DNA from: Catajapyx aquilonaris | Taxonomy: Eukaryota | NCBI GenBank assembly: GCA_000934665.2 | Contig: JYFJ02001009.1 | Span: 62,001-96,235 of the forward strand | Length of the DNA: 34,235 nt | Direction of reading: 5' to 3' | In this document: in pieces, positions 3,340 to 30,860 of the stretch | How the letters are laid out: each line of letters starts with the position of its first letter | Numbering within the stretch: the first letter of the stretch is position 1 | Translations under genes and position numbers: made by a program | Notes under the pieces: generated by a model | Databases searched by the model: none | Seen by the model: the letters and a program-made list of their open reading frames with translations, nothing else | Told to the model about the DNA's origin: nothing

Positions 3340-6300
3340 TCAGTACCGTGCTTTCTTGGGATTGAAGTTTGGTCCGCCAACACCCATCCTCTTCTTTCTC
3401 CTCACCTGCTCTCGTTTGGCCCCACGTACATCTAAGAAACTTGGTTAAGGACATATCCAAAATCTTACCATACTACCTGATACTACAGACAGGTAATATT
3501 ACATTGTTGGTTGTCAATTGGTATCCTGGCAACCAACAGACTGTATTACGTACAATTAGCTGCAAATTTTCAATCGCTTGGTGTCTGTGGTTCCAGAAGA
3601 AAATTGCCCATTGCGGAAAATATGTTTGGACTTGTCGCAAGATTGTCAATTTTTATCATACCACGCATAAAATTTTTGTAGCCTCTAATGATTTCATTGC
3701 GGACAGGTTACATTCTATCATGAAAGCAAATTCAGCGACGGACACGATGCAATTAACATATTACCTGACAAATTTGTGGCATTTAATGAGCTTGGGTCAT
3801 TATACCTCGGGGGTAATCAACCAGTAGAAAGTGGGTAATTTTCTCGACTCCGAAGTTACTACAAATTAATTAATTTTCACCGCTACTGCATACCCATTCA
3901 TTTACTTAAAACACATTACTCAATGACTAGTCGCTAACTTTCATTCTAAATTTATTCCCATTTTGGAATATGAACAGTGCCATCACTTGGGTATATTAAT
4001 AAACTAGCAGAGAGCTGCGGGCATCAAAGGAAACCACACATCCTCGGCGGAAAAAAAAAATGGGGGGCCCCTCGCGTGCAATATTTCATCCTTGCCTAAC
4101 GCTATGGGGGCTCCCCCATCTTCGCATCCCCCTCCCCACACACCCAACCCTGTTTTTGCACTTTCCAAAAATAGGATGGGCAGATTTAGGATAAGAGGGG
4201 TAGAGACGGAAAGGGGAGGAAGAGGACAACTTTCTCAGAGATGGGTTCCAACCAAAATAATCGAAATGAATGACCCAACCAAGCAGCAGGTTTGAGCTCA
4301 GCCCACCCTGAAATTAACTCCACCTGGCAGCCGCCCCCCGCTTCTCCGTAATGAAAAGGAAGCAACGGAGGAAAGGGGGGTGAAAAAAATCATGTGCAAT
4401 AAAAATCCAGGCATGCTACCAAATTTCTGTCAGCTCGCCATAAATTCCCCATCAGGATCTTATTTTAAGCCTCATCTGGCAAGAAACCCGCAGCACATAC
4501 GAAAAGAGCGAAATTATTTTAAAAAATCGTGGATGCCAGTACGTGCGCCATAGTTCATTCATTAATGAGATGAAGGTGTTCGTATGCTACAAATAAAAGC
4601 GTCTGTTTGCTGTAGCGATCCGGTGTAAATGATGGCGTGAGTCAACCCCCACTATTTGTAGCTGTGTATTAGCTATGATTCACTTGTACTGGTACTTGGC
4701 TCCAATCAAACATGAAGTAGCCAAAGAGCCTGAGAAATGGAGGAAAAAGGTCGCACGTATGCTCGGAACAAATCCTGCACAAATCGCATATATCTTGACA
4801 CCCATCCTAACAACTGGTTGCTACGTCAGGACTCGTTTTGCAGAAAATAGCCTTTGTCGCATGACACACACCAAGAGCCGTAGCAAAGACAGGCGAGGAG
4901 GAGTGCAAAAAGACCAGGAATAACTTTCCTTGGCTGCATTTGCCCCAACAATTCCTGAATGGGCACTTACAAAACCCAAATTCCTTGCTGTAACCCACAT
5001 CGAGAGAGTCTACACCTCTGCGCTCCTTTAAAAAAAGTTATTCCCTCAAGGTCTATTATTATATTTGTTGCACGGCAGCACACCTTTTTTCCCTCCGTGA
5101 GTAGGCGGAAAGAAAAACAAACTGATCCTCGGGTAAATTGCCTATACAGCAAGAAAGTAATTACGAAACAATCATCCGGAAAAATGCAACAAAAGGCGTA
5201 ACGCAATTACTAACAGATTGCCAATAATATTAATGACACGTACAATGCGATGTTAATAGGCAAAATTGAATAATAATCCCGACTGGTTTTTAAAAACTAA
5301 ATCTCTCTTGCATTGCACGGCAGCACACTTTTTCCTCCGTGAGTAGGCGGAATGAAAAACAAACTGATAAATACGCTCGTAGCATGAAAATAATTACGAA
5401 ACGATAATATCGGAAGAATGCAACATAATTACTAGTAAACATATTTCCAATCATAACAATGCAACATGAGTTAATTTGCGATTGCATAAATCTGAATAAT
5501 AATCCGGACCATTTTTACAAAACTAAATCTCGAGGGTGTAGACCTAAAAAAAATAAATGCAACTTTTTCACAAAATTCGCCCACTCCTTCGCCACGGTCG
5601 CCCACACGTCTCCGTGACTCATATGTTTTTCCTTCCACACTCCGCACACACACTTCTTCTCCCACATGACATCAGCAAACTCCAGGTCATCCTCAAATGA
5701 CAAAAGCAGTTCCCACTCATAAGAATGGGCGATGAAAAAAAATATATGAAAAGAAATTAGGACCTGAAGTACCTGGAGTATGAGGACCCTTCAAAATGCA
5801 CAGAAAAAAATTAAAGCAAAAAAAAAAGAAGGGAAGGTTGCCGTAGTAATAAAAAGTGCAAGTGAGGATGACTAGTTGGCAACACACTGTGCTAAAACCG
5901 CATATTGTAGTTTGCAGATTTTTTTTTCGAGACGGTCAAAAGGATACTGAGATCAACAGCAGGAGGGACTCGGAATCCGAAAGACCTGGCCACCTTGGCC
6001 AACTCCAGCGTGTTGATGTCAAACACCTGCTTCAAATGGTGCGAGTCATAAGCCCTCACGTACGTTTTGAACGCATCCTTCGCCGATTTGTTCAAAAAGT
6101 AATTCTTGCCAATAAGTGTTTCCAACTGCGAACAAACAAACACAGGATTCTCGTTAGCAGCTCATAAGAGTGGCAGGCCCTGGGCGTAATATCAAGGAGG
6201 GGAAAGTGATGCGGAAGGTTCTGAATGCAAGCAGCGACAGATGTCGGAAACACTCGCATTTCAATCGACCCTGTAATTACCTGATCCTGAATGTCGGCCA

Positions 6301-7946
6301 CTTTTGCCCAGGAGAACTCGTATTCGTTTAGTGGAACCTTGGCTTGCTTCAGGTAGCGAAGAAACGCTATCTCCTCGGGTCTGAGGATTAGAAGGGCATG
6401 ACCCCTTCCTCCCTCACCTCTGGCTGTACGACCCACTCGGTGGATGTACTCCTTCGGGTCATCAGGAGGATCATACTGCACTATCCAGTCTACATCTGGA
6501 ATGTCCAGGCCACGAGCTGCCACATCAGTACAAAGGAGAATGCCAGTGTCGGCGTTGCAGAACTGGAAGAATGTCGTTGTCCGCTTCACCTGCTTCTGCT
6601 GTCCCTGTAACAATAAGTAGCTACAATTAGTTACTGACAACACAAACACGAGTGGGTGAGCTATACTTACATGTATACAGGTGACAGGCAGATCAATGTA
6701 ATTGAGTAGCTCATGATGGTACTTGACGGAGAGACAAGAGCTGAAGAAAACCATTATCTTCTTCTTCCGGTTCTTCTTGAGGAATGTGAAGAGCAGCAGA
6801 AACCTCTTCTCGGACGGGCAGACAACGTAGCCCTGCTCCAAGCCTTCAACAGTCGCCGTGGCCTTAGAGTCATCAACACCCACGTAGATCGGCTCTTTCT
6901 TCAGGGCCAGCATAGCCAGGGATTCCGTCTTCTGGCTCGTCGTAGCGCTGAACAGCATCGTCTGACGTCTCTCTGTAATAAGCAAAAGCAGGTTTAAGAT
7001 GTAATGAAATTAGCAGCCGTTCCATTGTAAGTAACAAGTCGCTTTAACTTACTCGGAAGGAGTCGTATGATCTGCTTCATCTCCTCCTCAAACCCAACGT
7101 CCAAAATTCGGTCCGCCTCGTCAATCACCAAACACTGCAGATTCTTGTACAGGAATCCGGCTGTGTTCTGCATATGATCAAGCAGCCTTCCCGGAGTGGC
7201 CACCAGGATATTAACCCCTTTCGACAGCTTCATTGCCTCGGACTGCCTGTTCGCACCTCCCATAAGCAGCCCGAAAGTGTGGGTATGATGCTTCATCAGC
7301 TCTTTCAGTACACCAAAAGTCTGCATGGACAACTCCCGAGTCGGGCTGATAATAATACATCCAGCTCCATTCCGCGGCAGAAACTTCAGCTTATAGATAA
7401 GCTCAACGGCTGGGATTAGAAACGCCAATGTTTTCCCCGATCCCGTCTGTGCCGCACCCAGCAAGTCCCTGCCTTCCAGCAAATGCGGTATCGCCTTGAA
7501 CTGTATCTCGGTCATATCTGTAAATCCCATATCCGCCACAGCCTCTAGCGTCTGCGAGCAAACACGGGATTCCAAAGCGGTGAAGCTGTGCGACGACAAC
7601 ATATGAACGCCCAGCGATGAGCCTGGAACTATACGATTTCATTAACGCTTTTAATTGCGCAGTGTTAATACAAACTTACGGCTTTCTCCATTCCGGTCGT
7701 AAAGCTCCAGCTCATTTCCTATAATTTAAGTATGGTGTAATTAGTACTGCTTCAGACACTTTCAATATAATCATTACCTTGCGGTTCATCATCATGTTGC
7801 GGTCCAGCGCTGCTTCTTTGCTCCTCTTCCTCCTTTGCGATCCGGTCCAGCTCCAGCAGCTCTCTTTGCTTCAGAACAGTCAGCTTCTTCTTAACCTCCC
7901 GTTTCTTCAGCTTCCTGTTCAGAACCTGCTCGTGAACACGCTTCAT
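3340..7946 (-). CDS. DDX18: ATP-dependent DEAD-box RNA helicase DDX18/Has1/pitchoune, ~559 aa; exons complement(7778-7946, 7680-7718, 7053-7628, 6671-6972, 6281-6604, 5948-6125, 3340-3431)
   Basis: Motifs [45 protein letters not shown], plus family-typical [11 protein letters not shown] and [11 protein letters not shown]. All introns GT-AG with consistent phase. Last exon ([20 protein letters not shown]...) lies beyond a 2.5-kb intron and is followed by AATAAA at 3314-3319 (minus). Confidence 0.96.
5069..5530. repeat. Diverged direct duplication (~245-bp period) inside DDX18 intron 6
   Basis: TGCACGGCAGCACAC.TTTT.CCTCCGTGAGTAGGCGGAA.GAAAAACAAACTGAT at ~5069 and ~5314, with similarity continuing (TAATTACGAAAC, ATGCAACA, TGAATAATAATCC, AAACTAAATCTC). 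Confidence 0.8.
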
Positions 7947-10668: not shown

Positions 10669-11388
10669 CTTCCGAAAAAAAAAAAAAAAACATTTTAACT
10701 CTGAAAAAAAATATTGTGCCACTCTTATTCCAAAAAAATTCATTCGATAGTATTTCCATTATTTGACAATGTAAATTTTAGTAACTAGTCAGGGCTACTG
10801 ATGACATATTTTTTAAAAAAAGGGAAAATTAAAATATGGAAGAAACCAGAAACTAGTCATGGCCGGGACTTGGGAGTTGCAAAAAAAATAAATCGTGGTG
10901 AGGACTTTTATACGTGATGCAAGAAACAAGTTGCCTATTTTAATACACATAAGTGCTGCTTCTGTGTGTGTATATCCAAAAACAACTATGGTTTTATGAA
11001 CCAGTAACTCCCCACTGTATAAATAATTTTTAAAAAATGCACAAAGTATGAATGGCCTGTAGATGGTAGCGATCAAAAATCATTACTTGCAAAAATATAT
11101 ATATACATACACCGATCGCTTTTCCTATTTTGTAATAAAATCCAATTTTTCTGAACAAACCTCTTTTTTTTTTTTACTGCCAAATATGCCTCATTCTTGG
11201 TTACGACGCGATCTTGAAGCCTGCAAAGGGAAACTTTTCGTTCATGACATTTCAGCGACGATTTTTTTTTTAAAAAAGAAGATGGGTTACTAAGAGAAAA
11301 GACTTGAGTTGTGACGTCTGAGCAGCTCAGACATTGTAAAATCCCATATTTAGTTACGGCACATTTTACAAAAAAAAAATACAGAGTT

Positions 11389-11987
11389 CTAATGGCTTGA
11401 TTTTCGCACCTTTGGTGAGGCATCAGTCTTGGATCCCTTGACTTTAAGCCGCTTCTCAATCAACGTACGCATCTTCACTACGCTCTCTTGCTTGGCCAGC
11501 AGTGGCGTCACTTGAGTTGGACCACTCTCGGTCATCTCTGCAAATTTTAATAGTGTAATGAGAGAAAATCATTAAAAAGCGGTGCGGGGATTGTCGTAAA
11601 TAAAATTTGCTACTCACTGTCGATTATAAAAGGGATGTACGTAGCTTGTGGCGTGAATATGTTGCTAACAGTCGTACCAGGTGCCTGTGCATAAAGCTTT
11701 GCGGAGTTTCCTTGCTCGTCAGACAAATCGAAATCTGTTTGTTATTGTAATAATTAATAAGCCGCATTATTACCCTGCAATCATAACTTGAGTACGAACC
11801 TTTCTCTGCCAGTTCGGGTATGTTATCCAAGATAAACTCCATGAAAATCGCAGCGGCACAGTTAGTGCATGCGAGGAACTCTTGCTGATCTGCAAAAATG
11901 TTCTAGTAAAATACTGATCTCGAATTATTGGAAATACGTCTTACCTCCGTGATTGACCTTAATCCAAGCGCTTAAAGTGTGTGCCAT
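11389..11987 (-). CDS. CXorf65/C22orf15-like small protein, 132 aa; exons complement(11945-11987, 11800-11889, 11618-11734, 11389-11537)
   Basis: Four exons joined by three phase-1 GT-AG introns give MAHTLSAWIKVNHGDQQEFLACTNCAAAIFMEFILDNIPELAEKDFDLSDEQGNSAKLYAQAPGTTVSNIFTPQATYIPFIIDKMTESGPTQVTPLLAKQESVVKMRTLIEKRLKVKGSKTDASPKVRKSSH. The pattern HGD.Q.FL..TNCA..DL..E.G..TY..PLL matches my recollection of human CXorf65. Confidence 0.8.
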
Positions 11988-12125
11988 CACGACAGAACCC
12001 TATTTGCCCAAGAGAAAGTTTAAAAATATATATATTCTGCAAAATTGCAAAAAAATAGTATCCTTAACAATTAAAGATGTAACCGCGGAAACTTGTCAAT
12101 AGTTCGGCTGTTGCAGCTTGGAAGG

Positions 12126-14010
12126 ATGGAGTCTTCGGATAAGAATGTGTTGGACTTGACGGAGACGCTCGAAGTTGCCCAGGATGGTAGTAGTGATGAG
12201 TCGTTGAAGCCACGGAAGCGGCCTAATGAAACCACTTCTGAGCCGCTTTTGAAGAAGCCCCGGTTGTCAGAATCCGACCCACCAGCAGAGGAAAAGCCTT
12301 CAAGGAAGCGGCCTAATGAAGCCACTTTTGAGCCGCTTGTGAAGAAACCCCGGTTGTCAGAACCCGAACCACCAGCAGAGGAAGGTAGCAGCGAAGGGAC
12401 TGCCGAAGAGACCTCGAAGCCTTCAAGGAAGCGGCCAAAACCTGACGCCACAGAGTCCTCAACATCCGGACCGCTTTCGAAGAAGCCCCGCTTATCAGAA
12501 TCTGAACCTTCAGTACAAGAGGAGCCGACAGCCGAGGGAAGTCGTGAAGTTGGACATGTCTTGGTTATGGGTCGAGGTTATTTTGGTCAGCTTGGGCTTG
12601 GAGATGACGCGAACAAAATGGAACGGAAGAAGCCAACAGCCGTGATGGGATTGAACAGAATTGTAGAGATCGCAGCCGGCGGAGTTCATTCCGTGTGTCT
12701 CACTGAAAATGGCGAGGTTTGTCTTCATATCAATATTTGCCAGTACATTACCTGACATGATGTCATTCCAGGTGTACACATTCGGATGCAATGATGAAGG
12801 TGCGTTGGGTCATGATGATGACGAGTACCTTCCCGGTTTAGTCGACATTCCGGGTAAAGTTGTGCAGGTTTCAGCTGGCGACTCGCACAGTGCAGCACTC
12901 ACCGATGATGGGAAGGTCTTTCTATGGGGGAATTTTAAGGTGAGCTTCATTTGGCGTGTTGGCGACGTTAATTGAAGTAATTTCTTTGTAAGGACTCACA
13001 TGGCCAGTTGGGCTTGACCCTTGAAGGATCTCATCGCAAACCAGTGCAAGTAATGAAGGAATTCAGTGCAATGCGGATATCATCTGGTGCGGACCATTGC
13101 GTGATTCTGACCACGGAAGGCCAGGTGTACACTTGCGGCAACTCGGAGCAAGGTAGTCTCGGGCGCATTGAACAGGAATTGACGATTGAAGAGGAATCCT
13201 CGGAATTGAAAGGTACCGATGTGCTTATTTAGGAAATGTGTAGAAGACCTTTGCACTATGTATTATTCCAGATCTGCAGCTGACTCCTAGTAAAATCATG
13301 TTCGATCAAGACCCACAAATGGACTGTACTTGGTGCGGTGAGTTTTCAAGCTTCATGCGAACGAAGAAAGACGGCGAGATCTTCGTAACAGGTCTAAACA
13401 ACTACCACCAGCTGGGCTCTAGAGATCCACCCATGTTCTTTCATCCGTCCGCGGAGACCTGTTTCCGTGGCCACAAGTGGCTGCAAATATCAGGAGGCCG
13501 GCATCATACGGTAGCTCTTGATGACCAAGGTACAGCGTATGAAATGTCGTACGGCTGTGGCGGAGATGACTTCAAATTTTTTTCAGGTCAAGTCTACACA
13601 TTGGGACTGCCAACATACGGTGCGCTTGGCCTCGGGTCTACTCCAGATGTGGGCGAAACAGTCTGGGAGCCCACTCCCGTCCCAACACTTGAGGGCATCA
13701 GGTGCATTGAAGTGTCTGCCGGAGATGGTGTGTCTCTAGCTGTTGCGGATAATGGTACGTTGCGGTTTTATCCAGTTGCGGTTACATGTGATATTTACCA
13801 TCTTAATTTATAGGTGACTTGTACGCCTGGGGTTCCGGAACCAACTTGCAGTTGGGGAGGACTGAAGAGGTTCACTTGAACAAGCCGGATGTCGTTAAGG
13901 GCAAGCAGCTTCAGGGCTGCAGAGTCATCAGCGTCTCATGCGGTGGAACGCATGTGATCATGCTCGCCGTCGACAACTCTTGCAACGAACAACCTCCAGT
14001 GGACAACTAG
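12126..14010 (+). CDS. RCC1: RCC1-family Ran GEF (divergent RCC1/Bj1-like), ~533 aa; exons 12126-12716, 12772-12939, 12993-13212, 13272-13529, 13587-13754, 13814-14010
   Basis: RCC1 repeats with RCC1-specific strings [71 protein letters not shown]. All introns GT-AG and in phase. Orthologue versus paralogue unresolved. Confidence 0.9.
12207..12508 (+). repeat. Three coding tandem repeats (~87-90 bp core) in the RCC1 N-terminal tail
   Basis: KP(S)RKRP(x)nPL.KKPRLSE.(D/E)P occurs three times; the DNA units are visibly similar (GGAAGCGGCCTAATGAA.CCACTT.TGAGCCGCTT.TGAAGAA.CCCCGGTTGTCAGAA). Confidence 0.92.
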
Positions 14011-14624
14011 CATTGTACTGTACTCAGCAAATTATATGTGTAAGGTTTAAATTCATATAAAAATGTTTACATGAGAACATCTGTGTTTTATTTTAAAAAT
14101 TCGATTTGAATATTCCCGCCTGTTCATTCGGACACCTCCCTCAACTTAGTGTGCTTCGGATTGGCTTCGGAAGTGTGCTTTAAAGTCCACTTTGCATATT
14201 CGTACGCGGCCCGTCAGCTTTTCCAGTAAAAAGTATTCCATTTTTTTTTGGAACATGCGAAAAAATTAAGTTTTGCAGTGCAAATTACAGTTGGAGGTTT
14301 TTGCGAGAACTGTGGGGTCATGTGCAAACAATGAGAGTCATGATCACGTTGTTGTAGAGATAAAGCAGCTGCAGCAGGTCATTTGCTTCTCCAAAAAGAG
14401 ATAAGGACATTTTTTTTTATTTTCAATTATCATGTTCGGTTGTGCTGTTGGAGCAACGGGATAGTTTTCCATTTTATTTTTGCGAATTGCTGGAGGAAAT
14501 TGCGAATTTGCTAAAAACATTGCAGAGGTGTTGATGATGCGGAGTGGTTATTTTTGTATCCGTCACATGTTCTGATCTTGTGTAGCTCCAACTTTTGTTT
14601 GTTTTTGCAATGTCATTCCGCACT

Positions 14625-17600
14625 ATGAGGCTTTTTGTGGTGCTCTGGGCCGTTGTCGGCGCTTGCCATGCGCTGTCGTGCCACTACTCGCAGCCTGGGA
14701 AGGACGGAGAACGAGAGCACTACGATTTGAACAGGTAACGTACTGTCGAATAAAAGGTAGTACATTGCAATATAAACTCATTACTTTTTACAGATTAATG
14801 CTGCCTATGCCATGGACATACTTGGACAACGTAGATCCAAACAACATTACAAAGTTTTACATCCAGATTTGCCGTCCTTTGCAAGGAGTCGATCCTGCCA
14901 TTTGTCCGGACGCAACTGCTTCTGTTTGCGTGACGAGACTGTCCAACGGTAAAGAGGAGAAGTTCCTTCCAAATGCTGGGAAAGCACTTGATGGTATATA
15001 TATACGGAATGCAGGAAAACATATATATTTTCTAATGATTTTTGATGCGAATCTTGTTGTTTTTCAGAGCCAGCCATGCTAGAGAATCAATTAGCACTTG
15101 TTTACCGCGATGGTGTCAGCCCCGAGTGCATTGAAAAAGGAATGTCAACCCGTATAATATTTCAGTGCAAACCAGGTGCTATAGTACGTATCCTGAATTT
15201 TTGCTACTGATTACCTGTACTTCGATACGTCAATAGTTTTTTTAAAAACAAATTTTAAGAATCAAGGTGCGTTTACATGTGAGCTATTTCAATAGCGAAG
15301 TCGTTGCCGATGCGAAAGTCAATTGTTAATTTCAACCTCTGCAAAGATTTCGTGAGTCAAATCACGTTTAGGCCACGTGAGCGATTCGCTCAGCGATGAA
15401 ACCAATTGTTTGGGGGGACAAAAATCTATTGTTACTTTCATGCCCATTCATTGCTCAGCGATGCATCGCTCACATGTAATCACATGTAACAATATAGTTT
15501 TTTTTACTGGCCACTCCCGCTAATTAAGATTGTCAAAATTATTTTAAATTCAGTACTGTAGCGATTCCTTCATTTTTTTTTCACAGGACAGCGATCCGCA
15601 ATTGTTGAAGAAGATTTCATGCGAGTACCTGTTTCTTTGGGAAACGGAAACGGCTTGTGCTGATCGGAATGTGTCGTCCCACAATTGCTCTATAAAATTG
15701 CGTGACTCGGAGCATGTAATGGACCTTCGGCCTCTGAAGAAGTCCACTTTTTACGAAGCCAAAAATGGTGATAAAACTTACCTGCTCAACATATGCGGAG
15801 TCATTAACGGAGACAGATGCGGCAACACTACTTCATGTGAAGTTGTTGCGGATAAACCGACCATCTTCGGGTTGGCAAACAACATGACTCTTCGTTACGT
15901 AGACGATTCCTTGCGTCTCCAGTATGTGGCTGGAGTCGTCTCCTCCACGGTCGATTTCGAGTGCGATACCTCGGTAGCGGAACCCAAACTGGAGTACGTT
16001 TCAAGCTCAGAGACGAAGTTGGAATTCAAGATGAAGACACCGTTAGCTTGTGTTCCTAAACCAATGGACTGCGAAGTGTTTGATAGCAAAGGGAACCGGT
16101 ATGATCTGAGTCCTTTAGGACGTACTCTCAAGAATTGGGAAGTCGGTGACGCTAGGTCGGACCATCCCGATTTGAGGTAACCGCCAGACGTTATCGTACA
16201 CAGTCAATGTATTTCATCGTACTCAATTGTTGCTGCACATTTGTGGTTTGCGATAATGCGAACTTTTTTTTCGTAGATACCACATTAATGTATGCCGAGC
16301 ACTCAACACTGTGTCGGATTATCAGTGCCCCGGAGGTCAGATCGGAGGCTGCCAGACCAGTACGACCCACAACAGCTCCTTCAACCTGGGCTACCTTCAA
16401 GGAAAGCCGACAGTCAACCCAGACGGAACCATCGCTCTTCGTTACATGGGCGGCAGCGAATGCAGAGGGAAAAAGCATATGCGCAGTACGCTGATCAACT
16501 TTTACTGCTCGCAATTAGAGAAAAGCCCGGGTTTCCAGGACGAGACGGACGACTGCATTTACATATTCAACTGGCACACACCGTCCGCATGCCCAGTTAA
16601 AGTGAGTCGGATTTGTTTGTTGCGGAAACCACAAACTTAATGCGGACGTTGCTTATTTCAGGCCGTGTTTGGGAAGGACTGCCTAGTGACAGATCCGCTG
16701 TATGGATACCAGTTTGACCTGAATCCATTACGAGGTGCCAAAGATTACGTCGTTTCCTCGCACAAGACTGACTCGTATCATCTCAACATATGTGGCCCAT
16801 TGAAAACGCCGTGTGGGGATTACACGCAGTCAGGCGCTTGCCTCTTTTCTCCCGGATCAAAACCGATGTCTATAGGCAACCAGTCAGACCGTCCTATATA
16901 CGACGATGGTTCCTTGACCATGATGATGACCAGATCCAACAAGGACTGTCCGCAGGAGAAGCAGTTGGCTCGTGTTATATTCTTATGCGATCATGCAGTA
17001 TCCGATTCGGAGTCAAAACCTGAGTTTGTGAATCGCGGGGACAAGTGCGATCACTATTTTGTGTGGAAAACGAGACGTGCATGTCCGCCGTACAAGGAGG
17101 TGAGCTGCAAGGCAACCGATCCGGAAAACGGACATCAGTATGATCTGAGCGGACTGAGCTGGACGGCCGCCAACCACAAGGCGGAGGTGGGCAAGAAGGA
17201 GTTTGTTATCAACGTCTGCAGGTCGTTGGTGCACTCAAAAGATTCCCGATGCGAGTACGACTCCGGTGTTTGCATGGTTGAATACGACGAGGTCAAACAG
17301 GAGAAGAAGTAAGTTGGCAAATTTTTCTAAATAATACATATTAACAAATGGGGGACTATTCGCAGCTACACAAATTTGGGCGACTCCACAAAAGGCCCGT
17401 ATGTGGAGAACGGACGACTGAGGCTGAAGTACGACACAGGCGACATTTGCATGGACCCGAAAGTTCCGAATAAGCCCAACATCGAAACTATAATTGACTT
17501 CATGTGCAGCAGTCAGGTTGGAATTTCCTGTTCGTTTTAGTCATTCGCTTCGTAACTATTTCCTCGATGCATATTCAGGGAAGCGAGCCGCAATTTCTGA

Positions 17601-20600
17601 AGGATGAGAACTGTTTATACAGATTTCTTTGGGAGACTCCAGCCGCCTGCCCGTTAGCTCTGGATCCGGACAATCCGTACGTTAGTGGCGACTGTACTAT
17701 CACTGACACTCGTACCAACCACAAGTGAGTCGCATTAATTAGTCGATACCCTGCTCAGCATTATGATTTTCTCTGTCTTGTCAGATTTAACATGAGCTCG
17801 TTAAGGAATGAGAACGGAGTGACCATCACTGGCGCTGTGAATCTTTACGCCTTTACGGTCAGTGTGTGTGGTCCGTTGAAAGGCAGCCCATGCGGAGATG
17901 TTGGTAAGGATTTTTCGATGTCATCGTTTACATTGTGATTAAAATGTTCTGTTCAACAGGTTCATGCCAACTGAATAAGTCAAGTGGAGCTTATTCCTCC
18001 GGCGGGAAAGCTAATTCCCGTCTCCGTTTCGAGGACGGAATCCTCTCGCTGCGATACGAGGAAGGCGAGGCTTGCCCAGGATTTCCGGCCGTCAACCACA
18101 GCACCTTAATCCAGTTTATCTGCTCCAGGGAAGGGTCACCATGGCAAGGACCTCGGCTGGTCAGCGATGCAGATGCATGTACGCACATGATTCATTGGGA
18201 CACGCCCTTGGCTTGCGAAGTGGACGTACAGTCCCAGTGCATGGCTAGTCGGAAAGGGAAGCAGGTTGATCTTTCTCCGTTGGTTAGGGAGGTTGGGAAC
18301 TATGAGGCTTCAGGGAAGGACACATCGTACCTGATTAATGTTTGTCATGAGGTCAGTCCGGACGAGAAGGTGGCTTGTCCGGCTGGAGCCGCAGTCTGTA
18401 GTTTCAAGGCCCGCGATGGAGGATATTCGGACGTTATGGTGAGTGGAATTTACGACTGGCCGACACGGTTTTACATCGTATCTCTATTGTAGTCTTTAGG
18501 GTACGTATCCAGCAAACCAACGCTTAACGAAGACGGCTCGGTGACAATCAAGTACGCAGGTGGAAGCGATTGCTCAACTAGCAAGGACGTCAAGGCCAGT
18601 TCGACTGTAAATTTTGTATGCAGTGAGCTACACTACCCTGTAAGTAATTAATCTATCGTTAGTGATTGCGGATCCAGTTTATTTTTAATTTAATGCATTT
18701 CAGGGATCGCCTACGTTATCAGGAGTTGGGGATAATTGCGATCACACTTTTGAGTGGAAGACACGCGTCGTGTGCCCACTTCAGGAACTGCGGCAAGCGG
18801 GACCTGGACGGTGTGTGTATCATGGCGAAGGTTTCCAGGTTGATCTGTCGGCGTTGCATCAACCAGGAGGACATGAGGTCAGTATGCGTTGACCGATGGC
18901 GACTGATGTAAAGCTGATGATAATTCATATTTAAAAAAATTTCAAGGTGAAAAGTGCGGAGAGAAACTTCCGGCTGAACTTGTGCCAAAGTGATGCCCAA
19001 TGCGGCGGAGCATGCGAAAAGACTTCGAAGGGAGTAAAGTCGTACGGGAGGAGAGTACAGTCTGACTTCTACGGGAACACAATGTCAATCGCCTACGAAG
19101 GAGGTGACGTCTGCAGCAAGAAAGAGAACTACGGTGCCAAACTTCTGATCAAGTGTAACGCAACGGCAGGGAAAGGATCGCCCTCTCTTTTACTGGTAAG
19201 TCCGCTTCACTTTTTGCATGCAAACGATGGGTTTAAAAAAATTAAAAATCAGCTGGTTTGGGGCTGCCCATTTTTAAAAACTTGCAGATTTTTATTAACC
19301 GGGATTGGCTTTTTAAAAAATCAGGTAAATGCACTGGTAACACGTTGGGCACGTCACACGTAACAGTGGGGGGAAAAATGCGCAACACTTTTATAATTGT
19401 CCGAGTTTCGTTCGAAGGCAATGTAAACAGTAATATCGTCATTAGCAAAAATAGACTGAGGTCAAAACCTGCGATTGGTTCGAGATAACAGATAATTTTC
19501 GCAACAAATATCATCCACAGCATGTCGGTCATCTTAAAATACTTCACTGGATTTTTTTAAAAATTGAGCTGTACATTAATAATTAATTGTTTGAAAAATT
19601 GGTACAGTAATGACTAAACAAGTATGACTTCAAATTCGCTCACTTGTTCACCACGTTTTTTGTGTTCGCTTGGGTTCAGTACTGCATTTTTCATGCTGTT
19701 GAAGTCGAGGTCCTCGGAGACCTATTGTTCAAAATCTCGGCCCGAATAAGCTCGAGCTTGTCGTCCTTTCTGCGACCGAATGCTCCTGGCGTAGGAGGAT
19801 GCGGCATGGCGTACCTAAGCTTCTGCCAGAACCACGGGTCGTCCCACTTTAAGTAGGTGTTCATCGACACGTACGCCCTCAGTTCCTCGTCCAACTCGTC
19901 GGACGATGGAACTTCACCGTACACTATGATTATGACACGCCTCGTCTTGTCCTGAAGTGCTTGCAAATGTGCTGCCTTAAACTCCATTCGACCCCAAACA
20001 CTCTCCAGAAAGTTCTTTGATAGGACGACAATAGTGCGGCGTGACGATTCGACCGAGTTTACTATTTGATTCGGGATGAATTCGCCCGCGAGCCAGTCGC
20101 GGTAGTGGACACAGAGTTTGAACTTGGGCTGTTCGGTTTCAAGTTTCGAGACCAGTTCTGCGATGACGAATTCCTCATCCTTATGCGAGTAACTGACGAA
20201 CGCATCGTAACTCTTATCGCGATCCAACTCGCGTTCGGTCACGCACCAGAGGCACAGGTTGCGGCTGTAGAGCCACACCTGCACTAAATGTTTGTTGCGA
20301 TAGTACGCAACCGACAGGGCGGTCACCACTAATGCGATTGCAGTAAGCGTCACAGATGCAGCCACTATCATTTTAGTTTGTCCGGGGCACAACTCGTCTA
20401 TCGTCAGCGTCGACACTTGCCGCCCATTGCGATCACACTGGACTGCATTGCCGTCTACTACGCTTCGATAGCTATCCTGCAGGAATTTCTGGAGCGGAAC
20501 AGCTTCGCAGTCACAGATCCACGGATTGTTGCTTAGTGACACATGAAAATTGGTGATATTTCCCATCCGCTGCACTAGATCGGCTGGCAATATGGTCAGA

Positions 20601-23600
20601 TTGTTGCTGTCTAAATACAGTGCGTGTACTTTCGGCGGTATTGCTTCGGGTAAAATACGAGTAATGTTGTTGTGCGACAAGTGCATCTCGGTGACATTGT
20701 CGTACCCAAGCAGTGGACGATCTAAGTAACGTAAATAATTGCCTGTCATATCCATTATTGTGTGGTTCAATTTGCGGTAATGGCCATCTACCATCCTGGT
20801 GTATTGGCTTGGATCGGGTAAGTTTGGAAATTGCAAGTACCCCGCGCCAGTGCAATTTATAATTAGAGCGTAACTTGACGGTTGCAACTCGCACGTGCAG
20901 TTTTCGGGACAGCCATTTGGCGCCGAACATAACAATTCGCTAACATCAACATTCCGTACCCGACGTTGCGATAACGTTGCTGGTCCTGAACACCGAAGGT
21001 TATCAACAACAAGCGATATGTCTTTCTTAAATCCTGCTCCGAAATCCGACTTCAAAAGATGGATGAATTCGAGCACGCTGCAGTTGCAATACAAAGGATT
21101 GTAGTCCAAGTACACGGATATGTTGCGTTGCGGCGGACCATCTCCGGTTATGTGTACGACATCAATCTGCGGCTCAATCGCAACCGTTTGGATCTGGTTG
21201 CCCTGCAGCAAAATGCAGACGTCCTTCGCCAGGAAGTTGTTCATATCGTAATTAGTCACACTCTGGATTGAATTGTTGCGAAGATCCAGCTCGGTCAGTT
21301 GCAGCAAAGTGAGTGACCACTGGGTCGCAATAGAGTCCACCAGGTTGTTACGCAGCTTCAGCACCTGCGAATGATCACAATCATTAGCGACGCTGACGAA
21401 ATTAGGCCAATTGTCGGATCGCATTAAGCACTTACCTTGAGATGCTGACAGTTGTTGAACACAGATTCCCTGACCCCGTTGGAGAAATTCAGCTTGTTGT
21501 CGGATAGATCCAGATAAGTGAGGGCCGCCAGATTTGGAAATGCGTCTGGTGCAATGTAGGAAATGCGGTTGCCTTGCAGATGGAGCGAGTTCAGGTTGCG
21601 GAGATTCAGGAATAGGTTTGATGTCAGGTTGGATAGTAGGTTATGCTGCAAGGAAAGCGAGCGGAGTTTGGACATAGTTTGAAACACCTTTTGCGGCAGG
21701 AACTTCAACTGGTTGTAACTCAGGTCGAGTTCGATCATTTCCGTGGTGTTTCGGAAAGTGTCTTCTGGAATATCGGGCAGGGTGTTCGCTTGAAGAGAGA
21801 GGATCTGAAGGCTGGTGCAGTCCAACAGGAATTTCTCCGGGATCTCGCTGATCCCACTGCGGTTCAGCGATAGGGACGTTAGATTGTGAAGTCCCTGTAA
21901 CATTCCAGGCGGAAGGATGCCCAACTGACGCATGTTTCCAATCACGTTGAGCGTCTCCAGGCGTGTGTTGTTGGCAAACAGTCTGTCCGGGATGGCCTGC
22001 AGGTCGTTCTGAAACAGACGGATCCTCCGGAGATTCGGCAGGTCCTGGAACACATCTTCGGGAAGCGTCCGTATCTGGTTGTCCTGCAGCTCCAATGTCG
22101 TTAGGTTCGGCATTCCTTGAAACCACTCACGATGTAGGGTCGTGAAGCTATTACGCTCCAGATTCAGCGTATCTAACCGCGTCAGGTTCCAGAATATGTT
22201 ACGGGGTAGTGCTTCCAATTTGTTGTCGCCAAGCTCTAGGTATTCCAGCAACGGCAGCTGGAATGCGTAGTCGGGCGGAAAATGCAGTTGGTTCAGTCGC
22301 AGACTTAGGCTTCGAAGGTGCTCCATGCTGTCGAACAATGTTGGAGGGAAGGCACGGAATTGGTTTCCATCCAAGCTCAGGTACGTGAGGTTCAGTCCTG
22401 TGAAATGATTCGGTTGCAGTCTATCTCCGAGATTCTTGTACGACATGAACTGTAGGGTTTGCACGTTGGATATTCCAGCGTCTCGGAACAACTCAGCGAA
22501 TGAGGCATCGGGAAGGTTGCACGACAGGAATATGGCGTGCTTGACTGGCCCGAATCCCATTCCGCGCGCATACCGGAAATACTCGGTGTCATTCCGCTCG
22601 TAGTTGCACTGGAACCGCACAAAATCGCCTGGTTGGAACCTGATTATGAGATGTTCCGTCACCGGGCTCTTCGGACATGTGATCACAATATGCTCCGCAC
22701 CTTGGCTGCAGAAACAGTCCGCACTTTGAGGGCACTCGAAGGCATAGCTGCTGACGACAGCTAGGAGTACGATGAACACCGTAAGCGCCGCCATTGCGCA
22801 CCAGTCGTGTTCACGTCTTGTGTCCAGGCAAACGCTTGCATAACAAACACTGAAAAAAAAGAATAAGAGCGGACGATTATAATTGATGCCACGCATGCGA
22901 TACTTTTAATCAATAACCCTGCAATGCCAGTGCATATTTAGGTGGAATTCATGGAAAAAAAATGCCTGGTATTTTTATCAAGTAGTTGCAACAAGTGCAT
23001 TACAAATGAAGATAAAAGATTGGTTGCGAAATATTTCTAAGAAGCATGAATTTTTTTGATAACAATGTGCACACAACCATATAGCTTCTCTGTAAATGTC
23101 GGCCACTCCCCCCAATTATTTAGCAATACAGGCCCTTTAATGAAATTTCTACACTTTCATAATCAGACGTAATTGGCCCATAATAATTGCGGTGCGGCTG
23201 ACATTGCCAGAAAAGCATTCAGTTATGCCGTTATGTGCACATGCTATCAACATTCATGCCTCTGTAAGTGCAATAAGCATGTGAGGCAACCAATAAAAGA
23301 TTACAAAGTGTACACCCTTTCCGGAAAATGTGATAACATAACAAAAAAATGTTTATCGTCCTTGCCAAACATATCCGTTTGTAAGATGCAGACGAGCCGA
23401 ACGATCGACTTAGGCATCACTTGATGAAATGAGTTTAATCTCCTTGACTTTTGCAATATGTTTCGTACCCTATCGTTGCATTTGTATTTACCCCATCTAT
23501 TTTCTCTTTCTACAGAGTTTATCACAGCGAACAGTTACGCTAAAGCTATTATTACCTAAAAAAAAAATGCAGTTGATTTCAGATATGACAGACTTATTCA

Positions 23601-27503: not shown

Positions 27504-30860
<3,357 letters not shown>

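Follow-up and report, generated by a model that had tools for sequence, protein, structure and literature searches.

Can an animal RCC1 lose its grip on the nucleosome and still serve Ran? RCC1 is a textbook case of arginine-anchor recognition of the acidic patch, and the RanGTP gradient around chromosomes, which guides spindle and nuclear-envelope assembly, is generally attributed to the binding of RCC1 to chromatin. The question is raised by a gene of Catajapyx aquilonaris (assembly GCA_000934665.2), located in a stretch of 34,235 nucleotides of contig JYFJ02001009.1 (positions 62,001 to 96,235, forward strand), which was analyzed at its full length and is referred to here as the window; all positions are counted from its first nucleotide. 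The gene encodes an RCC1 protein in which acidic or neutral residues stand in place of two arginines of the switchback loop, one of them the anchor, and of the basic DNA-binding loop. We estimate the probability at roughly 0.5 that the product is a Ran exchange factor whose propeller has ceased to dock on nucleosomes and which acts as a free nuclear protein or is tethered in another way.

The loops facing the nucleosome

The initial annotation described an acidic, arginine-free loop following the motif GSLGR, and this is borne out by the codons, by the charge count and by an alignment with 120 metazoan RCC1 proteins. This panel consists of the 120 proteins listed among 679 that were matched by the propeller of a rotifer-type RCC1 (P0001), and all of them are animal RCC1 where named. 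The GSLGR codons (13152-13166) run uninterrupted into those for the first 15 acidic-loop residues (13167-13211), all within exon 3. An Asp codon is then split (13212 and 13272-13273) across a GT-AG intron of 59 nt (13213-13271), and exon 4 continues with L-Q-L-T-P (13274-13288). Residues 312-344, 33 in total, include 10 acidic and two basic residues and no Arg, which amounts to a net charge of -8; when 33 residues were drawn from the rest of the propeller, the draws were equally acidic in 0.7% of 100,000 random trials. In a MAFFT alignment, the segment between GxLGR and the next blade carries a net charge of +1 to +9 in every panel protein, as opposed to -8 here, and the isoelectric point (pI) of 4.88 is the lowest among the 121 sequences (the panel plus this protein). 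Scored against nine other arthropod RCC1 proteins, no 15-residue window of the propeller deviates more than residues 315-329, which have a deficit of -2.59 compared with a mean of -0.52 and a standard deviation of 0.60. The loss that had been noted for the first loop holds, but it extends further: the DNA-binding loop, whose sequence includes D-Q-D-P-Q-M-D, is also acidic and shorter than in most RCC1 proteins.

The residues through which canonical RCC1 holds the nucleosome are known from work on the human and fly proteins. In the cryo-electron microscopy complex 8UX1, human R217 serves as the anchor on the acidic patch (PMC12448860); it is reported to be required for nucleosome binding, with K232, R234 and R237 required for DNA binding (PMC4750278). 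Fly RCC1 contacts histones through S214, R216 and R223 in its nucleosome complex, and DNA through R239, K241 and Q259 (PMC4750278). The numbers were transferred through PDB alignments that pair P0001 with human RCC1 and a mosquito RCC1 with fly RCC1; the basic human and fly loops cited in the initial annotation agree with these alignments. The anchor (human R217, fly R223) corresponds to Ser322, at a position that is R in 119 panel proteins and K in the remaining one, and human R214 corresponds to Glu319 (R in 106). The other two histone contacts of the fly protein are also represented by glutamates, S214 by Glu313 (A in 45 panel proteins, S in 41, P in 31) and R216 by Glu315 (C in 33, R in 33, Y in 31). 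Among the DNA contacts, fly R239 and human K232 are matched by Gln339 (K in 41, R in 17, a gap in 16, G in 11) and fly K241 by Asp340 (K in 50, H in 16, R in 13, N in 10), while human R234 and R237 fall into a gap, at positions that are variable and often gapped in the panel. At the position of fly Q259, the protein has Lys359 (D in 45, E in 41, N in 12, K in five). Hence, three features of the family, the arginine anchor, the second loop arginine and the basic DNA-binding loop, are absent. Both nucleosome-fastening elements are replaced, and canonical propeller docking on the H2A-H2B acidic patch and on nucleosomal DNA should therefore be lost. Of the uncoupling from the acidic patch that had been proposed at the outset, the disappearance of the anchor and of the neighboring arginine stands, and a loss of binding is what these substitutions would predict.

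The Ran-facing side, the tail and the family

The motifs GDSH, GADH, GRHH and FK/DSHG, which had been listed as linked to Ran exchange, are all present. Most of the Ran-side residues checked are also kept, with changes at D44, R147 and Q409. The residues retained are H78, D128, F146, D148, G151, D182, H183, R206, H270, H304, H305 and H410, and we take these Asp, His and other residues to serve Ran binding and catalysis. In the beta-wedge (blade 3, human residues 146-153), F252, D254 and G257 are kept. The roles of the wedge and of D182 have been reviewed (PMC7522611). In the panel, 99 columns reach a conservation of 90% or more, and 88 of these are retained here; in a leave-one-out comparison, full-length members of the panel retain 90.5% or more of the conserved columns; by this measure the protein is the most divergent full-length sequence, by a small margin. 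The pattern is consistent with a retained Ran exchange function.

The N-terminal tail of 143 residues contains three RKRP...KKPRLSE modules that resemble bipartite nuclear localization signals (NLS). The pattern KR-x(9-12)-KKxR describes two of them; in the third, the spacer is longer. Overall, the tail is acidic, with 24 Lys/Arg and 31 Asp/Glu residues, a net charge of -7 and a pI of 4.9. The other arthropod tails examined contain a single bipartite basic cluster and read as basic; insect tails have 36-63 residues, and those of Daphnia-like and centipede proteins are longer. The N-terminal methylation motif M-[SAPG]-P-K is absent here, which is uninformative, as it is present in just five of the 120 panel proteins. 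The tail would thus resemble a multiplied import signal more than a DNA clamp. The three modules, as copies of the ancestral bipartite-NLS-like one, would supply nuclear import, and RanGTP would be produced by a soluble nuclear factor, or the protein would be held on chromatin only via its tail or via Ran.

Membership of the RCC1 orthogroup, assumed from the start, is supported by structure matches, blastp and a tree. Among solved structures, exon 3 is closest to fly RCC1 (3mvd_K, expect value (E) 6e-29), followed by human RCC1 (2e-24), HERC2 (7e-22), RPGR (1e-20) and RCC2 (1e-12), and UVR8 also ranks below human RCC1. All 120 panel proteins were matched by blastp with the spliced protein (E up to 1e-5), the 40 best over 385-505 residues at 38-47% identity, and Daphnia-like and hymenopteran proteins rank first. 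A word-index search of longer proteins with exon 3 gave a single match, to P0001 (44%). In a quick IQ-TREE analysis restricted to RCC1 proteins (45 rows, 423 columns), the protein falls inside a 12-row hexapod set whose named members are all insects, with a Shimodaira-Hasegawa-like approximate likelihood ratio test (SH-aLRT) value of 98; its position within the set is not resolved. Its end branch, 1.4 changes per column, is the longest in the tree (median 0.37). The propeller is 43-48% identical to those of eight insects, which share 51-68% among themselves, and 42-48% identical to those of arthropods; identity spans 38-48% over the whole comparison set. For comparison, two neighboring genes show ordinary conservation: one exon of a Caf1-55 gene agrees with the fly protein in 133 of 141 residues, and the core of a DDX18 gene is about 80% identical to human DDX18 (both counted from alignments). 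This hints, weakly, at a speed-up specific to the RCC1 gene, the hint being weak because Caf1-55 and DDX18 are slow in all lineages. Judged from its sequence, the locus is a real, intact gene that belongs to the RCC1 (Bj1) orthogroup as a rapidly evolving insect-type representative.

The six word-index matches of exon 1 included no close relative, in a search of longer proteins in which shorter, exon-sized gene calls from unannotated assemblies could have been missed. A metagenome scan yielded 11 loci at 27-55% identity, none of which matched past query residue 57, and a scan of prokaryote genomes yielded one distant bacterial locus. Several other comparisons were set aside. An exhaustive HMMER search with exon 3 returned 42,235 matches, the best 150 of which are long multi-repeat proteins of 599-7235 residues and are uninformative on orthologs; a protein-cluster comparison gave generic RCC1-repeat clusters only; and in an alignment of the separate exon pieces, the pieces stacked on each other as repeats.

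Readings of the locus

A number of observations weigh against an exchange factor that has given up propeller docking. On the nucleosome side, Lys359 lies within R-T-K-K and adds charge at a DNA contact, and with the 24 Lys/Arg of the tail the protein may retain some DNA binding. In the human complex, Ran too contacts the nucleosome (PMC12448860), and the placement of the loops depends on alignment to solved RCC1 structures. On the Ran side, R147 is replaced by Lys253 (R in 120/120 panel proteins), D44 by Tyr152 (D in 81/120) and Q409 by Thr (Q in 119/120), and further deviant windows (150-164, 420-434 and 481-495) possibly lie on the Ran face; with these changes, exchange activity is not assured. 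The long branch is partly a sampling effect, with no close relative to break it, and dipteran RCC1 proteins lie 0.9-1.05 from the same tree node.

Whether such an exchange factor is one of two RCC1 proteins is a separate matter. The initial annotation favored a specialized paralog, and we lean slightly, as a guess, toward a lineage-specific duplicate beside a canonical RCC1; the germ-cell role suggested along with it is speculation. Against the paralog, tblastn with three arthropod RCC1 proteins detected no second RCC1 gene in the 34-kb window. In the sources covered by the literature search, no report was found of an insect paralog of RCC1, of an anchorless RCC1 in any animal or, judging by titles and abstracts, of an animal Ran-GEF paralog.

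A tentative alternative is that the gene is the sole RCC1 of the species, with tethering moved to the tail modules, the R-T-K-K patch, Ran or another partner, and with the essential functions preserved by this other attachment. An insect lineage would then possess no propeller docking, RanGTP would not be fastened to chromatin by an arginine anchor, and the gradient would be built otherwise or be dispensable; this scenario is possible but doubtful. The absence of a second copy from the window fits it, as do the five introns and the normal RCC1 layout, which show that the gene is not a retrocopy. The multiplication of the tail module, once recently, and the lysine that takes the place of fly Q259 could both reflect a shifted tether, and the fast evolution of dipteran RCC1 provides a parallel. 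Also, in the passages covered, a survey of insect nuclear-transport duplicates names RCC1 just in the introduction (PMC8645118). However, the near-universal anchor in the panel means that its loss in a sole copy would be without precedent there, and the tail that would have to take over is acidic as a whole. The neighboring Caf1-55 and DDX18 genes are ordinarily conserved, and although both are slow everywhere, the speed-up looks specific to the RCC1 gene.

It is unlikely that the protein has ceased to be a Ran exchange factor, whether as a decaying duplicate or in a new role, for instance as a Ran-binding regulator or as a binder of basic proteins via its acidic face. The longest branch in the tree and the loss of D44 would suit such a protein, as would changes in invariant or near-invariant columns (R147K, Q409T, and H in place of D at 489 and of R at 211), and the loop charge is reversed, which is more than a plain loss. 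The gene nevertheless has an intact frame, six exons and canonical splice sites, the 88 conserved columns have been kept despite about 1.4 changes per site, and the wedge and the Ran-linked Asp and His residues are in place, D182 with its reported role among them.

The loops could also have been misread through a wrong splice junction. Every GT between 13152 and 13261 was combined with every AG up to 13330, with introns of at least 40 nt and products that are stop-free and in frame into exon 5. None of the seven resulting combinations yields a basic loop or gives arginines: four delete GSLGR, whose Arg is invariant in the panel (120/120), and the other three retain the acidic stretch. It is the modeled junction (13213/13271) that keeps both GxLGR and the conserved L-x-P, and its loop exceeds those of relatives by one residue. 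One of the outcomes named beforehand as refuting the initial reading, a different exon 3/4 junction that restores a basic loop, is thereby excluded by the sequence. Hence, although the gene model is drawn from sequence only and a donor-like AAG/GTAGTC lies inside the GSLGR codons (13150-13158), an annotation artifact in which the actual mRNA encodes a normal basic loop by way of a different junction or exon is highly improbable, as the conserved GSLGR leads straight into the acidic stretch without an intervening GT, the enumerated junctions fail to provide such a loop, and an intron of 59 nt is too small for a hidden exon. Paired with the acceptor at 13271, the donor-like site would define an intron of 119 nt and excise GSLGR and the acidic stretch in frame.

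We consequently retain the exchange factor without propeller docking as the preferred interpretation. With the Ran side kept and both nucleosome loops reversed in charge, it would be a natural separation-of-function allele that could show what an exchange factor does free of chromatin. A duplicate would point to the Ran cycle being put to a specialized use, whereas a sole copy would challenge the indispensability of this docking mode in animals.

Gene layout, neighbors and known systems

The coordinates of the gene, its parts and its neighbors are given in Table 1. All five introns have GT-AG borders and are 54-59 nt long. The Pfam RCC1 repeat (PF00415) is matched by all six exon translations, and exons 1-5 match positions 1-51, 52-114, 116-179, 190-263 and 266-315 of the RCC1-like domain (PF25390) in turn. 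The order and borders of the exons are supported because these five exons match successive stretches of that domain; exon 6 matches the repeat model rather than the domain profile. The same exon blocks were recovered by tblastn with the three arthropod RCC1 proteins. Intron 4 (13530-13586; 57 nt) is in frame and stop-free, and its retention would add 19 residues between blades; it is treated as an intron because relatives have no insert there. A minimal upstream ATG-TAA (12077-12082) lies about 45 nt 5' of the start codon.

Table 1. Positions of the RCC1 gene, its exons and loop equivalents, and neighboring genes in the window
Feature	Positions	Strand	Description
RCC1 gene	12126-14010	+	Six exons, 533 codons, frame open throughout
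Exon 1	12126-12716	+	Start codon, 143-residue N-terminal tail, first RCC1 blade (Pfam RCC1 repeat, residues 143-192)
Exon 2	12772-12939	+	Blade with AGDSH (human D128); F-K at its end is the base of the beta-wedge
Exon 3	12993-13212	+	Wedge DSHG, SGADH (D182), GSLGR (R206), first 15 acidic-loop residues
Exon 4	13272-13529	+	Remaining loops; blade with NNYHQLG (H270 equivalent) and GGRHH (H304/H305 equivalent)
Exon 5	13587-13754	+	RCC1 blade
Exon 6	13814-14010	+	Last blade, GGTH (H410 kept, Q409 replaced by T), stop TAG
Tandem repeat	12214-12383	+	90 bp, 1.9 copies, 92% matches, in exon 1; duplicates the NLS-like module
Third module copy	~12420-12500		More diverged copy of the NLS-like module
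Switchback-loop equivalent	13167-13288	+	Residues 312-333, split by intron 3 (13213-13271)
DNA-binding-loop equivalent	13289-13324	+	Residues 334-345; acidic, shorter than in most RCC1
DEAD-box helicase gene	6092-7638	-	C-terminal half nearest human DDX18 (E 1e-114, ~80% over ~220 residues)
Scanned part of the head-to-head gene	11073-11459		No Pfam match
Head-to-head gene	11624-11990	-	Apparent gene start ~140 bp from the RCC1 start codon
Mannose-6-phosphate receptor-type gene	14617-18492	+	Multi-exon; signal-peptide-like start, several cation-independent mannose-6-phosphate receptor repeats (Pfam CIMR)
Toll-like receptor gene	19691-22905	-	Leucine-rich repeats and TIR
Caf1-55/RBBP4 gene	27801-28840	-	Histone-binding protein

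The Toll-like receptor gene consists of two long open reading frames in different frames, which overlap at 21424-21640, consistent with a short intron or a frameshift.

The closest known system is canonical RCC1/Bj1, as represented by the human structures 1A12, 1I2M and 8UX1 and by the Drosophila protein on the nucleosome (3MVD). The protein described here shares with it the seven-blade propeller, the wedge F-(R/K)-D-x-x-G, the equivalents of D128, D182, H304 and H410, the GxLGR motifs and a bipartite basic tail signal. It differs in the docking residues, which are basic in canonical RCC1 and are Ser, Glu, Gln or Asp or deleted here, in the charge of the loop segment (-8 versus +1 to +9) and in the number of tail signals, three instead of one. 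For the idea of a paralog, the testis-biased duplicates of Ran, Ntf-2 and importin-alpha in Drosophila serve as a model; they are fast-evolving and are thought to be linked to conflict in the male germline (PMC8645118). The same survey describes the nuclear-transport duplicates of Drosophila as mostly intronless retrocopies that are largely confined to Drosophila (PMC8645118), in contrast to the gene studied here with its five introns. The effect that an acidic face may have on chromatin binding is illustrated by UVR8, a protein with the RCC1 fold whose nucleosome-side face is negative and which has no histone- or DNA-binding loops; it is reported not to bind reconstituted nucleosomes (PMC4750278). 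The likeness is restricted to the RCC1-type propeller with an acidic face: UVR8 is a plant UV-B receptor and neither an RCC1 ortholog nor a Ran exchange factor, and of the two proteins only the one from C. aquilonaris combines such a face with the wedge and a place in the insect clade.
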